DNA of 64,000 nucleotides, taken from NCBI GenBank assembly GCA_963663865.1, contig OY760686.1:2912001-2976000 (forward strand). The letters are read 5' to 3'. The notes below the pieces were generated by a model. The model worked only from the letters and a program-made list of their open reading frames with translations, did no database searches and was not told where the DNA came from. This document shows, in pieces, positions 2,475 through 15,059 of the stretch. The translations under genes were made by a program, and so were the position numbers. This DNA comes from Spirochaetota bacterium. GTDB taxonomy: Bacteria; Spirochaetota; UBA4802; UBA5550. Position 1 is the stretch's first letter; each line of letters starts with the position of its first letter.

Positions 2475-3776
2475 TTGATGAACTACAGGTTCTCACCCCT
2501 TTTCAGGAAGCTGCGAATCCTCATACCGCCGGCAGCAGCCGCCTCTGCGATCCCGCTTTCAGTTCTTCTACATAACAGCGGTAATTCTCTCGCTAATTCT
2601 GTGTTCCCGTCAGATTTCCATATACCGGAGATTCTGGCGGCATTAATCTGCGGAACCGCGGCTTTTATTGCCGCTTATCCGGCACACAGATTCCGCGAAC
2701 AGGTCAGCAGGCGCATCAGCACCGGGACCGGGGGGACGGGTTTATCCCCCGACAATCGCAATGATCCAGTCGAAACACTCAAAGCTCTCGACAGCTTAAC
2801 GGCTCACGCACGGAAATCAGTCAGCTCAGCGCCGCGCCTTGAAAGCCTTCTTGGCGGCTTCAGCGAATTTTCTGGTGCTGCGGTGCAAAACACCGAAGAT
2901 ACCTTTGAAAACCTGAAAAGGCAGGCAATTTCAATTATCGACCTTTCCGCCTCAATCGAATTCATTGTCAAAGGAATAGACGATGTCGGAGGAAAAACAT
3001 CGGCAATGTCATCAGAGCTCCAGATGTTAGTCAACTTGATACACAATCTCTCCTCCACCGCGCAGGAGCTTGGAGAGAAGATTGACTCTGCTGTAGCTTC
3101 GGCAAGGCTTGTATCAGCGGAGGCCATTGAAAGCCAGAGCCGCCTGAACTCCGCAACCCGTGAAATGCTCAACGTGATAGAAAACTCAAGGATGATAGGC
3201 GAATCGCTTTCAGTGATCAATGACGTCTCAGACAGGATAAACCTGCTTGCCCTGAACGCTGCCATAGAGGCCGCTCGCGCCGGAAACAGCGGACGCGGAT
3301 TCGCGGTAGTTGCCGATGAAATATCCAAGCTCGCCGACCAGACAGCTGAAAGCGTCAATGAGATCACGCGCCTCCTGGCAGGAAACAGCTTTGACCTTGA
3401 GAAGAAGACTATAACCATACAGAACGCCGTCCACAAGACCGGCGATATCATGAAAAAAATCGAAACGCTTCACAATGAGATCGGAAAAATCGCGCACTCA
3501 ATAAAGGATCAGGCAACCTTGAACAGCATTATATCCAATGAGGCTGCCAAAATAAACACTACCTCCGACGCTATAGAAACCGCGACAATGGAGCAGAAAC
3601 TCGCGGTATATGAAATACTCACGAAGGTTAACGACATCAATGATATTTACAAGATAATTGTTCCCCTGATTAAAGACACGATATCGCGCAAAAACAGAGT
3701 AGAACACGACATCGCGCTTTTAAACGACATCAGGATGGAATTCACTTCAATCCGTCCTGAGATAAGTAAAAAATAA
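2475..3776 (+). CDS. Methyl-accepting chemotaxis protein
   Basis: [40 protein letters not shown] signalling tip; two N-terminal hydrophobic segments with a very short loop. Confidence 0.92.
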
Positions 3777-11143: not shown

Positions 11144-11662
11144 ATGAGATACGCGTTATTGCTTCTTGCGATTACAATCGCTTCTTCTCCTGTACTGTCT
11201 TCAGAAACTGACCAGAGCATTTCCGGCGATAACGCAAAAGCAGAAAACCGGCTCTCAAAACCCGACCACTCGCTGGGCTTTTCTACAGGATTTTCAATCG
11301 GTGTTGGTCCCACTTACCGTTACTGGCCTGGAAAATTTGGCGGCCAGATCACCTTTTTACCCTATATCGACAAAGACTATTTCTTATACTCTACGGCCAT
11401 AACCGGATTTGTCTCCTGGAAAGAAACAAGAATCACCAGATTCTTTTCATACGCCAGCATCCATTCATTCAACATTGATGATGATGATTATACCTGGAAA
11501 GACGGCCCGCATTCTTTCATTTCGGGAATAGGTATAGGAATTGAGTTTTTCTCGGATGAGAGCCTCTCGCTCAGCATTATGGGAGGATTTGCCGGATACA
11601 GAATTGATGACAAGGTGGAATTTTTTCCAACATATGACATGTCAGTAATGTACCTTTTTTAG
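11144..11662 (+). CDS. Small outer-membrane beta-barrel-like protein, paralogue 1
   Basis: Signal peptide, amphipathic beta strands, C-terminal YLF. Confidence 0.75.
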   Translation: MRYALLLLAITIASSPVLSSETDQSISGDNAKAENRLSKPDHSLGFSTGFSIGVGPTYRYWPGKFGGQITFLPYIDKDYFLYSTAITGFVSWKETRITRFFSYASIHSFNIDDDDYTWKDGPHSFISGIGIGIEFFSDESLSLSIMGGFAGYRIDDKVEFFPTYDMSVMYLF

Positions 11663-11778
11663 TTGCCTCATCACAAAGATGCAGTTATAAATAAAGTTGA
11701 TGCTTTTTTTTCTGAAATGAATAAGCCCTTTCGAGGCATAAGACTATGTTCAGTCATCATAAACTACCGGGGAACAAC

Positions 11779-12318
11779 ATGAAGAAGCCTGTGAAAATTA
11801 TTCTCTTAATATGCGCCGCCTTTTTATCAACGATGCTTCCGCTTTCTGCCGAAACCGAAACAGTCAAACCGAAGGACGATACCAGGCACGCGCTCGGACT
11901 CGCCGCGGGTCTGACCACTGGCTCAGGCCTCAGCTACCGATACTGGCCCGGGGACTTCGGCTTTCAGGCTACATTTCTGCCCAACACTGCCGCAGGAGAA
12001 CCCTACGTCAATGCAGGAATAACCCTCCTCTACCAGATAAGCAGGAGCCAGATCACCCGATTCTATCTCTATGCCAGCTCAAGACATCTCTTTAAAAAAT
12101 ACGACGAGGACTACTACGACTACGGCTCGGACTGGTACACCACAAAAGACGGCGAGAACTACAAGTATTCCCTCTCAATCGGAGCCGGCCCCGGCATCGA
12201 GATATTCCTGTTCGAAGATATCGGAATAAACCTGATGACCGGCTACGCTGTTCACAACATCAACCGCGACACAGTATTCACTATGACCGTTGAGAGCGCC
12301 GTCTTCTATAACTTCTGA
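11779..12318 (+). CDS. Small outer-membrane beta-barrel-like protein, paralogue 2 (likely start MKKPVK)
   Basis: Signal peptide; GLSYRYWPGDFGFQATFLP versus GPTYRYWPGKFGGQITFLP in the neighbour; C-terminal YNF. Confidence 0.75.
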   Translation: MKKPVKIILLICAAFLSTMLPLSAETETVKPKDDTRHALGLAAGLTTGSGLSYRYWPGDFGFQATFLPNTAAGEPYVNAGITLLYQISRSQITRFYLYASSRHLFKKYDEDYYDYGSDWYTTKDGENYKYSLSIGAGPGIEIFLFEDIGINLMTGYAVHNINRDTVFTMTVESAVFYNF

Positions 12319-12322
12319 CAGG

Positions 12323-12871
12323 CTATTCCCCGTCTTCCACACGGCGTTCAGCGGAGTATTTCATGCTCCGCTTCGTCAGACGGGAAAAGGCTGCCGTTAT
12401 AAGCATTGCGACAAGGCAGCCGAGAACGACGCTGACCATTCTCTCAAAGGCGATATTCCACTGGAAATTTCTGTTGTTCTGAATAAGCACAATTACAAGG
12501 GCGGCAAGCGCCGTCCTTGTCGCGTTTCCCAGCTTCAGAAACGTGCATATCAATATGGTTGTTAAAACCGCCGCTACAAGGCTGATGAGGCCTCCCGATG
12601 GAACAAGCGTGAAGTAGACAAGCCCTACACCTGCTCCGGTGATGTTCGCCTTTATCCTGTCCAGAGAAAGCTTCAGGGAATCCTTCGTCTCAGGGGCCAG
12701 AACAAGCAGGACCGATATTATCGCCCACGAGAACTCATGTTCCGGAAAGAACAGATAGAGAGCATAGCACAGCGAGGCGCCAAGGGCGCACTGAACAAGA
12801 TAGAGGATAAATGTCAGCTTCTTAAGCTCGCAGTAATAATCCCGCCACAGCGATGCCATCAATGACTTCAT
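12323..12871 (-). CDS. FUSC / aromatic acid exporter family membrane protein
   Basis: WAIISVLLVL..SLKLSLDRIKANITGA and IAFERMVSVVLG motifs; multiple TM helices; overlaps the AKR stop by 4 bp. Confidence 0.8.
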   Translation of the reverse strand: MKSLMASLWRDYYCELKKLTFILYLVQCALGASLCYALYLFFPEHEFSWAIISVLLVLAPETKDSLKLSLDRIKANITGAGVGLVYFTLVPSGGLISLVAAVLTTILICTFLKLGNATRTALAALVIVLIQNNRNFQWNIAFERMVSVVLGCLVAMLITAAFSRLTKRSMKYSAERRVEDGE

Positions 12872-13824
12872 TTAACGTACACTTCCCTGAAGCCCGCCGA
12901 CGCTGCGTTGAGTTCCGGCACAAACTCCTTAAACACATCCATCGCGGGAAGCTGCGAGTTTTCGTCTGCCTGCCTTCTGTCGCGCGCTCCGATAATCACC
13001 GCGCCGACTCCCTCAGCGCTCAGCGCCCATGCCGCGGCCGCCTGTGAGGGCCGGCATCCGGCCCTTTCAGACACTTCTCTCAGCTTTGAGACCAGCCTTT
13101 CAGCGGCCTCCCTGTAACTTTCTCTGTAGAACCTGTAAAAAAACGACCTGGCGTCATTCCTGGGAAAATGCGGGGGGCTGGTGTATTTTCCTGTAAGCAT
13201 CCCGCCTCCGAGCGTGCCGTAGACAAGCATCGGAACGCCGTTCCTGATTGACCATGGCAGAATACCTTCGTCAATGCCTCTTTCCAGCAGGGAGTACTGA
13301 TACTGCATGGAGTTAATCGCCGCGTACCGTCCGGATTCCTCTGCCTGCTCAACGCTGTAGTTTGAGAGGCCTATAAACCTTATTTTACCCGCGTCTTTCA
13401 GCCGGGTCATCGCTCCCATAACATCCTCAGCCGGAACGGATGGATCCGGCCAGTGGCACTGATACAGGTCAATGCAGTCTGTTCCCAACCGCCTGAGAGA
13501 AGCCTCCGCCTCGCGGTAAATCGACTCAGGCCTCAGATTATGCCTCATCCCGTTTTCCAGGTCGAGTCCGCATTTAGTGGCAATAAAAACAGAATCCCGC
13601 GTTCCCGAGACGGCCTCACCGACAAGCTCCTCTGCAAGGCCCGACCCGTAGGCGGGGGCCGTGTCAATGGCGTTCACTCCCCTCGCGATTGACTCCCTTA
13701 CTGCCTCAACGGCCTCCCTGCTGTCGCTGCCGCCCCATCCGGAGCCTCCCATTGCCCATGTCCCTAAAATTATCCTGGATACCTCATGAGAATCTTTTTC
13801 ATCAGATATTGTAAAGTATTCCAT
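12868..13824 (-). CDS. Aldo/keto reductase (start placed at the ATG after GGAGG)
   Basis: LGTWAMGG, IDTAPAYG, IATKCG, IDLYQCHWPD, GKIRFIGLSNY. Confidence 0.93.
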   Translation of the reverse strand: MEYFTISDEKDSHEVSRIILGTWAMGGSGWGGSDSREAVEAVRESIARGVNAIDTAPAYGSGLAEELVGEAVSGTRDSVFIATKCGLDLENGMRHNLRPESIYREAEASLRRLGTDCIDLYQCHWPDPSVPAEDVMGAMTRLKDAGKIRFIGLSNYSVEQAEESGRYAAINSMQYQYSLLERGIDEGILPWSIRNGVPMLVYGTLGGGMLTGKYTSPPHFPRNDARSFFYRFYRESYREAAERLVSKLREVSERAGCRPSQAAAAWALSAEGVGAVIIGARDRRQADENSQLPAMDVFKEFVPELNAASAGFREVYVK

Positions 13825-13897
13825 ATTGCCTCCGCGTTTCCGGATAATTTGTAGCGTGTTTATTGTCAACTATGAAGCTCACACAGAAGTCTGTTCT

Positions 13898-14122: not shown

Positions 14123-14461
14123 TTGATACTTTTCAGCGTTTTTTACACACAAGTATGTCAACTCATCATTACATTATGTAATCTTGACATAAATGTATGT
14201 CAACTTAACATAACATTATGTGACCTTTACATTATCGAGTGTCATCATTACATAACAGTATGCGACCTTTACATAATCGTATGTCAACTTTACATAACGT
14301 TATGTGACTTTTACATAATCAAGTGTCATCTTTACATAATGTTATGTGAATTTTACATAATAGAATGTAAACTTTACATAACGGAATGTGACTTTTTGTT
14401 AACTGCATGTCAACTCGACATGATGTTATATGTTCTTTTCATAATCTTATCTGTTATCTGA
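14123..14461 (+). CDS. Possible Cys-heptad repeat peptide (CxLYIxx)13; may be a by-product of the DNA repeat
   Basis: Open frame through the array with Cys every 7 aa, but a TTG start and no SD. Confidence 0.25.
   Translation: MILFSVFYTQVCQLIITLCNLDINVCQLNITLCDLYIIECHHYITVCDLYIIVCQLYITLCDFYIIKCHLYIMLCEFYIIECKLYITECDFLLTACQLDMMLYVLFIILSVI
14135..14449. repeat. Degenerate 21-bp tandem repeat array (13 core units plus 2 degenerate flanks) with internal dyad symmetry
   Basis: Consensus TGT(C/G)ANCTTTACATAANNNTA; no indels across 14156-14428; palindrome ACATAAC|GTTATGT spans the unit junction. Confidence 0.95.
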
Positions 14462-14561
14462 TTTTTTCTCTACTTTTTTCTATTTTTTTTGTCAATTTCC
14501 ATGATAAATAAACACATTAGATGCATGAGTAATAATAAAATTAGGCAAGGAGGTAATTATA

Positions 14562-15059
14562 ATGCGTTCAGGACCCACCTTTCTGTTGACCTTTCTTATT
14601 TTGCTTTTATTATCAAGCTGCGACGGAGGATCTTCAGATGACAATACGCTAAACCCCGCTGAGAGCGCGGACCAGAACCTGCAGAGCGGGTCCATCGAGT
14701 TTGAAAAGATTACAGTCCTTAACCTCGAAGTGATGGATTCAGGATGTTTTGTTTTCAACTCCCGGGCTGAGTGGATTGAATTCACCGAAACCAACGATAT
14801 TTCAGATGATGCTCTTACTAATGTGGACTTTGATTCAAAAACAGTTCTGGCGGTTTTTGCCGGGAGGAAATCATCGGCGGGGTATTCGATTGACATCGTT
14901 TCAGTAACTAAAGCCTCGGGCGAAGCGCAAATTACCGTCTCTTACGAGGAGACCGTCCCGCCCGAAGACGGTATAACCGCCTCTGTTCTGACATACCCGT
15001 GCAGCTTTGTCACTATTTCCAAAACCGACACCCCGGTCATATTTCAGCAATCAGAATAA
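14562..15059 (+). CDS. Lipoprotein with PrcB C-terminal-type domain
   Basis: AAGGAGG SD; lipobox LLSSC; VDFDSKTVLAVFAGRKSSAGYSIDI...VLTYPCSFVTI. Confidence 0.82.
   Translation: MRSGPTFLLTFLILLLLSSCDGGSSDDNTLNPAESADQNLQSGSIEFEKITVLNLEVMDSGCFVFNSRAEWIEFTETNDISDDALTNVDFDSKTVLAVFAGRKSSAGYSIDIVSVTKASGEAQITVSYEETVPPEDGITASVLTYPCSFVTISKTDTPVIFQQSE

Follow-up and report, generated by a model that had tools for sequence, protein, structure and literature searches.

The window analysed here is a stretch of 64,000 nucleotides (C1:2912001-2976000) of the Spirochaetota genome G000, which consists of one contig of 3,156,400 bp. Between two of its genes lies an array of palindromic 21-bp units. We find that this window array very probably belongs to a real and widespread class of phased dyad arrays that are linked to one family of small helical proteins. 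We call this family X, after the open reading frame (ORF) that stands beside a second array of the same genome. The function of the arrays is less certain than the class. Our favoured explanation, to which we give roughly an even chance, is that the window array is an orphan of the X-linked family and a DNA-level platform bound by X dimers, one for every two helical turns.

The array is highly regular. Unit alignment confirms what the original prediction had described: a core of 13 units of exactly 21 bp with zero indels, plus one degenerate unit on each side. A and B units (TGTCA.../TGTGA...) alternate with a 42-bp period, and there is a higher order at 84 bp. Tandem Repeats Finder recovers all three periods with 0% indels: 21 bp (14152-14381, 67% matches), 42 bp (14155-14396, 80% matches) and 84 bp (14183-14396, 84% matches). 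It occupies part of a 690-bp gap that separates an aldo/keto reductase gene (- strand) from a PrcB_C lipoprotein-like gene (+ strand). Its parts, in window coordinates, are as follows.

14156-14428, no strand: core array with an ACATA-N4-TATGT dyad at each unit junction (repeat finding, dyad scan and position weight matrix, PWM).
14135-14155, no strand: degenerate left-edge unit, AGCGTTTTTTACACACAAGTA (unit alignment).
14429-14449, no strand: degenerate right-edge unit (unit alignment; 17.1 bits with the PWM).
14292-14305, no strand: best dyad, a perfect 14-bp palindrome ACATAACGTTATGT; the remaining dyads follow at 21-bp steps from there.
14123-14461, + strand: ORF with a TTG start that spans the array, 112 aa, with a Cys-heptad reading; judged a by-product and not a gene.

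The dyad pattern ACATAAYNNTATGT, allowing at most one mismatch, matches 11 times in the 64-kb window and every match falls within the array. Dinucleotide-preserving shuffles contain 0.28 matches on average, and none of 100 gets to 11. Per-column counts show that the outer 5-bp arms of the dyad are nearly invariant while the four central bases vary, just as had been predicted. Watson-Crick pairing is found at 60 of the 91 arm pairs. The units abut without spacers, so the array is not made of clustered regularly interspaced short palindromic repeats (CRISPR), again in agreement with the earlier reading. With a PWM built from the units, the units themselves score between 14.6 and 29.7 bits.

The array is not unique to this assembly, a possibility that the original prediction had raised together with a PWM scan as the means to check it. 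In that scan, all matches of at least 19 bits fall in three places of the genome. One is the window array (array 1) and the other two are arrays of the same unit; arrays with the same motif also occur in other genomes.

C1:1198893-1199123, - strand: array 2, 11 units with a clear 42-bp A/B alternation (PWM scan).
C1:3009649-3009816: array 3, four 42-bp units (PWM scan).

Arrays 1 and 2 can be aligned over 231 bp with 78.8% likeness. When the flanks of the arrays were compared, no likeness beyond the repeats and no larger shared mobile element was found. Array 2 is placed between convergent gene ends. Array 3 has an IS3-family element on one side and a gene's 3' end on the other.

The IS3-family element is 1260 bp long and has three copies that are 99.5-100% identical (C1:3008384-3009643, 2240216-2241475 and 977240-978499). 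The copy that abuts array 3 (C1:3008384-3009643) has no array on its far side. Directly after array 3 stands a perfect GC-rich hairpin, GCGTAGAGACGCCC...GGGCGTCTCTACGC (C1:3009811-3009850), and in the metagenomic locus L067 two similar GC-rich hairpins bracket the array. We also considered an iteron replication origin and rejected it: no rep gene is adjacent, and the arrays, at 1.20, 2.93 and 3.01 Mb, lie away from the GC-skew extremes (minimum at ~0.34 Mb, maximum at ~1.92 Mb).

The original prediction stated that no cognate binding protein is encoded next to the array. This is correct for the window, where the neighbours offer no candidate, but it is misleading, since the sister array 2 adjoins X. 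The X gene (C1:1199315-1199785, - strand, 156 aa) is the sole X in the genome. Array 2 begins ~190 bp past its stop codon, after a terminator hairpin. The window array lies 1.73 Mb from the X gene, far outside the ~600 bp within which arrays of the family typically accompany X. It is an orphan copy.

The link between X and the arrays was recognised through a DNA pattern scan for two perfect dyads 21 bp apart, with one genome per species. The scan returned 31 stretches, mostly two-dyad pairs. Long 21-bp arrays appeared in genome G013 and in three metagenomic loci: L046 (Ignavibacteriaceae bin), L049 (Flavobacterium-labelled bin) and L051 (Bacteroidales bin). In L051 the gene directly before the array shares 43% identity (E 2e-50) with the X gene of G000, and the arrangement is the same. 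From this find the X family was recognised as array-linked.

The Acinetobacter matches of the pattern scan were set aside as unrelated to the arrays. In Acinetobacter lwoffii plasmid pALWED1.3 (L056/L062, ~3413-3447) and at ~15 other Acinetobacter loci, two CACATAAAWWTATGTG palindromes stand exactly 21 bp apart between small divergent hypothetical genes. These two-dyad pairs are probably an ordinary paired operator.

The linkage is general. In the window's phylum, X is present in 12 of 401 genomes. At 13 of 16 X loci there (12 clear, 1 weak) the strongest downstream period is 21 or 42 bp. A metagenome scan with a closer alignment yielded 80 loci, near-duplicates included; as throughout, the thresholds for calling an array were our own choice. 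Among the loci with at least 300 bp of downstream sequence, 57 of 73 carry an array with a period of 21 or 42 bp no more than 600 bp behind X. The upstream control is periodic at 5 of 74 loci, and four of these five are real arrays placed upstream of X. Where the best period among 12-45 bp reaches 0.55, it is 21 bp at 30 loci, 42 bp at 27 and 44 bp at 2. Later array counts refer to 49 non-redundant arrays. The X-array system is hosted by Spirochaetota, Bacteroidota, Ignavibacteriota and Bacillota-labelled metagenome bins.

Between lineages the unit sequences are wholly different, and what is retained is the period and the dyad symmetry. Unit types include ACATA..TATGT, ACACTC..GAGTGT, GCCACTC..GAGTGGC, GGTACTAATTAGTACC and others. 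Paralogous X genes within one genome (G039, G038) each have a different array. The pattern of one X-adjacent array plus orphans recurs with another motif in G293, which has two orphans as G000 does; G239 and G281 have the adjacent array only. The linkage also holds in the reverse direction. ACATA-type arrays led to four other genomes (G013 and those of L046, L049 and L051), and each of them encodes X, whereas the base rate in two phylum samples is 11 of 400 and 23 of 300. X is absent from two genomes that have no more than 3-unit look-alikes.

The window array shares the features of this family: a 21/42-bp period without spacers, a dyad core of ~14 bp, the motif of the X-adjacent array and a genome that encodes X. 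We found no description of such arrays in a full-text literature search, which does not prove that none exists elsewhere.

Some loci add variants of the arrangement. Behind an X homologue at L171:2254-2410 there is a 63-bp (3 x 21) repeat in 2.5 copies, and behind another, at L170:2098-2132, the 7-bp repeat CTACAAC occurs five times at the contig end; 63 bp is a multiple of 21 and 7 bp a divisor. A conserved stretch, GCTTGACAAAAGGAATTATATGCTTA..., stands just behind the arrays of L082, L084 and L090, which are related loci with arrays of different motif classes.

The array could act as peptide, as RNA or as DNA. A peptide was one suggestion of the original prediction. Its reading of the + strand is accurate: the frame is open with a TTG start and no Shine-Dalgarno sequence, and Cys (TGT/TGC) opens 13 of 13 units. 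The frame at 14123-14461 is the only one of six that is open across the window array, and the same frame is open in all three G000 arrays. The peptide itself, a Cys-heptad repeat that binds metal or resembles a ribosomally synthesised and post-translationally modified peptide (RiPP), does not survive the comparison. In array 3 the Cys is missing from every second unit. Among arrays of the same motif, stops interrupt the frame in L082, L134 and G013 C103. A six-frame reading of 53 arrays finds no open frame in 21, one in 18, two in 10 and three in 4. Variation among the window units, which the original prediction proposed to compare by codon position, has no codon-position pattern. We give the peptide next to no probability. 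The Cys frame is open in the window array because the unit consensus happens to lack stops there, and the heptad reading is a side effect of the unit sequence.

Alternatively, the array acts as RNA. X would then bind or process a tandem transcript, made as the 3' untranslated region of X or from a promoter of its own, and the transcript would serve as a sponge, as a type III antitoxin-like RNA or as a source of phased 21-nt RNAs. Some observations suit this explanation. The RNA of the array folds better than its shuffles (z -4.2, with 0 of 100 shuffles as good). On the X-sense strand, arrays with a positive AT skew (>0.1 in 25 arrays) outnumber those with a negative one (<-0.1 in 9; 27 lie in between). 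At L084, L090 and L129 no terminator intervenes and the array starts immediately at the X stop codon, which permits co-transcription; this weighs against a platform made of DNA alone.

The pairing statistics do not look like those of an RNA. The dyads of 49 arrays, read on the X-sense strand, contain 1958 Watson-Crick pairs, 220 G-T, 213 A-C and 654 others. There is thus no wobble bias of G-T over A-C (binomial p 0.77). When the A and B units of 42-bp repeats are compared, 97 differences break a pair on one side and 11 are compensatory. The minimum-energy fold joins distant units, whereas single-unit hairpins reach merely -1.4 to -4.4 kcal/mol. The tandem mini-hairpins of the original prediction are therefore disfavoured. 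Moreover, arrays occur on either side of X, some of them upstream, their base composition by strand follows no uniform orientation to X, and at many loci, including G000, terminator hairpins part X from its array.

Orphan arrays offer no consistent promoter context either. The TTGACA that had been noted on the - strand at 14490-14495 (TGTCAA on the + strand) is present. Promoter-like sites around the window array number 6, compared with 3.8 +/- 1.9 in shuffles, which is no excess. A search of Rfam returned only microRNA models (E 0.075-0.7), far under their gathering scores, and X has no ToxN-like match in Pfam or PADLOC. Overall, we consider an RNA function improbable. Conserved half-sites, a free centre and a phasing of two helical turns have the look of protein-bound double-stranded DNA.

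Which protein binds? X is the obvious candidate. It is a family of at least 770 proteins or clusters (profile search, E <= 1e-5), all of them 'hypothetical' where named and without a Pfam domain; a cluster search (Atlas) likewise returned 'hypothetical' clusters only. Profile searches of X against Pfam, NCBIfam, PHROGs, PADLOC and PDB found nothing meaningful. The protein has ~155 aa, and its AlphaFold2 model is all-helical (predicted local distance difference test, pLDDT, 86.9) with a central helix of 52 residues. Folded alone, the N-terminal 72 residues give a low-confidence model (pLDDT 69) with no strand. A short basic tail forms the C terminus.

Complex prediction gives the X homodimer a score of 0.69, while the best of three controls reaches 0.00. 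Of the proteins solved as one-chain pairs, 20 of 30 attain this mark, and of those solved as single chains 1 of 23 does; since the prediction for X used an alignment of our own, these counts apply to it only roughly. The dimer runs agree in at least 84% of their contacts, with a partner pLDDT of at least 79. Residue 95 contacts residue 95, and residue 92 contacts residue 102. The models indicate that X is a two-fold symmetric, intertwined homodimer.

The tail may hold a clue to specificity. Within the clade near this X, all 7 proteins that accompany ACATA-type arrays have the tail FFK-R-x-R, and all 7 that accompany ACACT-type arrays have FFK-K-x-K. The columns that best discriminate between the two types of X protein are those of the tail. 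Even a 91%-identical pair, L082 and L084, stands on opposite sides of the split in tail and motif. The tail residues are a weak lead as candidate specificity determinants.

We can now state the favoured explanation, the X-bound DNA platform, as a mechanism. X would form a symmetric homodimer, and each 14-bp dyad would be read by one dimer. Because the dyads are 21 bp (two helical turns) apart, the dimers would stack on one face of the helix, 10-15 of them per array, and bind cooperatively. Each array would thus carry one large nucleoprotein complex. Its purpose may be that of a centromere-like or anchor-like landmark, a titration sink for X, or a roadblock or insulator. X is the proposed reader because it is the sole linked gene, is predicted to be a symmetric dimer, goes with lineage-specific motifs and has a tail that correlates with them. 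Of the readings in the original prediction, the helically phased array that binds protein cooperatively is the one that the comparisons favour; the binding itself stays an inference.

A number of results weigh against X as the reader. X has no recognisable DNA-binding fold by Foldseek or VIA: with the X model as query, Foldseek gives no match at E <= 0.001, and a wide VIA search gives generic helical hairpins only (best Z 6.1). The protein is mildly acidic to neutral (isoelectric point 5.0-7.7). By the thresholds used, 3 of the 16 X loci in the window's phylum have no array, nor do 16 of the 73 metagenome loci, with self-chosen thresholds and near-duplicates among the 80. The X of G013 is followed, in the 86 bp that remain before the contig ends (L081:1-86, G013:C319), by a 15-bp repeat, GCCTGTACARAACCY; the 21-bp ACATA units of G013 are on four other contigs. 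The motif class does not simply follow X similarity, as the closest X from the same host family (L064, 53% identity) goes with a different unit and the 43%-identical Bacteroidales X with the same class. The tail rule has a counter-example in G407, whose X has the tail FFRKAKR and an ACATA-type array, and the tail comparison uses related, non-independent sequences, so that its counts overstate independence. Finally, the linkage and the shared motifs could stem from co-inheritance and duplication.

Several of these results would suit a different factor. Another factor might bind the arrays, or they might work by virtue of their DNA shape, as a roadblock or recombination site, with X as a passenger or as the target of regulation. 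The missing DNA-binding fold, the lack of basic charge, the loose relation between motif class and X similarity, and the 15-bp repeat in G013 all fit. However, the ORF lists hold no other conserved gene around X and the arrays (most of these ORFs were unscanned against families). Motifs that differ by lineage require a reader that co-evolves fast, and no gene other than X is linked. X is also a predicted symmetric dimer, and its tail residues match the motif class in 14 of 14 close relatives. We regard another factor as rather unlikely.

The arrays could also be of no benefit to the cell. In this case they would be selfish or neutral palindromic minisatellites, similar to repetitive extragenic palindromes (REPs) and bacterial interspersed mosaic elements (BIMEs), and would spread by slippage, unequal crossing-over or a transposase. 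The arrays are indeed intergenic, two of the three in G000 stand behind gene 3' ends, and array 3 abuts an IS3-family element. A higher order of 42 and 84 bp is typical of unequal crossing-over. Contigs frequently break at arrays, and many X contigs end there. Strains differ as well. Run X4 contains a relative whose reductase gene is ~94% alike. Array units on contigs of this run, also at loose contig ends, agree in type and differ in sequence. One of these contigs connects the array to 15048, and 140 other letters replace 14319-15047 with its PrcB-like gene.

Other features speak against a minisatellite. The arrays keep a 21/42-bp period across phyla despite the turnover of their sequence, conserve the arms of the dyad while the centre varies, and are tightly linked to one protein family. 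Drift would hardly account for a conserved period or for the tie to X. The arrays share no flanks. A transposase of the Y1 type (PF01797), to which the REP-associated tyrosine transposases (RAYTs) belong, has no match in G000 (98% complete), while the controls gave matches in 6 of 14 genomes. We assign a low probability to a minisatellite that does nothing for its host.

A bolder version of the X-bound platform is possible, although we hold it to be doubtful. X and its arrays may form an unrecognised, self-contained two-part chromosomal system. A dimeric reader with a new fold would polymerise on lineage-specific arrays without a partition motor and mark one to several sites as landmarks, perhaps for chromosome organisation or, in view of a fusion with a KAP-family protein, for defence. 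The tail would help to set the specificity.

The fusion concerns locus L072 (G239:C2), where the X frame (L072:1450-1941, - strand, protein P0121) is continuous with an upstream KAP-family P-loop nucleoside triphosphatase (NTPase). P0121 has 1181 aa with PF07693 at residues 193-445, and it is the sole long form found. It is either a fusion or the product of a lost stop codon. The long form is a possible hint of a link to defence.

The window neighbours of the array are as follows.

12868-13869, - strand: aldo/keto reductase gene, divergent from the array side (PF00248, E 4e-71).
14562-15059, + strand: lipoprotein-like ORF that contains a PrcB_C domain (PF14343, E 2.5e-13) and follows the array at a distance of 113 bp.

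The true start of the reductase is likely the ATG at 13824, behind a GGAGG. An ORF of 1110 aa, also among the neighbours, reads by eye as an efflux pump of the resistance-nodulation-division (RND) type. Elsewhere in the window, two adjacent paralogous small proteins with signal peptides (11144-11662 and 11746-12318, + strand) have the common motif G..YRYWPG.FG.Q.TFLP. They look like a duplicated pair of small outer-membrane proteins or lipoproteins.

If X does read the arrays, then the two are a widespread cis-trans pair that lacks any annotation. X would represent a new DNA-binding fold, and the arrays would be a case from nature of long chromosomal operator arrays phased with the helix. Site and reader would diverge together and fast, which could be used to study specificity. 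There is also a practical side. Arrays break short-read assemblies and can be mistaken for CRISPR-like or coding repeats. Knowing the array family prevents false calls of heptad-repeat ORFs.

The X-array arrangement resembles several known systems, and each resemblance is incomplete. In ToxIN, a 36-nt repeat lies upstream of the toxin gene, and the toxin is an RNase of the ToxN fold. ToxI consists of tandem repeats beside a gene of ~160-170 aa, with a terminator between the two. Here, too, a short tandem repeat array stands beside a gene for a small protein with a terminator in between. In contrast to ToxIN, the arrays are mostly downstream, do not covary as an RNA would, and accompany a helical X without a ToxN match.

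REPs and BIMEs are clustered short extragenic palindromes with alternating unit types that go with RAYT transposases and often stand behind gene 3' ends (PMC3733652). The window units differ from them in having no GTAG/CGTC tag and in being direct, strictly phased at 21 bp and X-linked.

Plasmid partition sites also resemble the proposed platform. At parC-ParR (R1, pSK41), parH-ParG and the omega heptads, symmetric dimers bind cooperatively and coat short contiguous repeats that keep phase with the helix. Partition sites of types Ib and II adjoin the gene directly, upstream or downstream, and site and protein diverge together and fast. Their centromere proteins are ribbon-helix-helix proteins that work with a ParA or ParM motor. 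X differs in both respects: it is predicted to be all-helical with no strand, and no motor gene is linked to it.

Each repeat of the F-plasmid site sopC has a 16-bp inverted repeat. The site consists of twelve 43-bp direct repeats that hold ParB-F binding sites (PMC8465637). The likeness lies in a tandem array beside the gene of its binding protein and in a 43-bp period near the 42-bp unit found here. There are also differences. No ParA or ParB genes adjoin the window array, which has the aldo/keto reductase and the PrcB_C protein as neighbours, and no NTPase is evident in the ORF lists around X (these ORFs were unscanned against families). X has no ParB or helix-turn-helix signature. The element described here is chromosomal, has several orphans and carries two dyads per 42 bp. 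A search of plasmid and phage collections with a single X query found no X there.

Lastly, the operators of ArgR are pairs of 18-bp ARG boxes, 21 bp from centre to centre, with the consensus TGAAT...ATTCA, and an oligomer binds to them cooperatively. They are paired and do not run to 10-20 copies, and their consensus differs from that of the arrays. They share with the X-linked arrays the placement of palindromes two helical turns apart on the same face of the helix.

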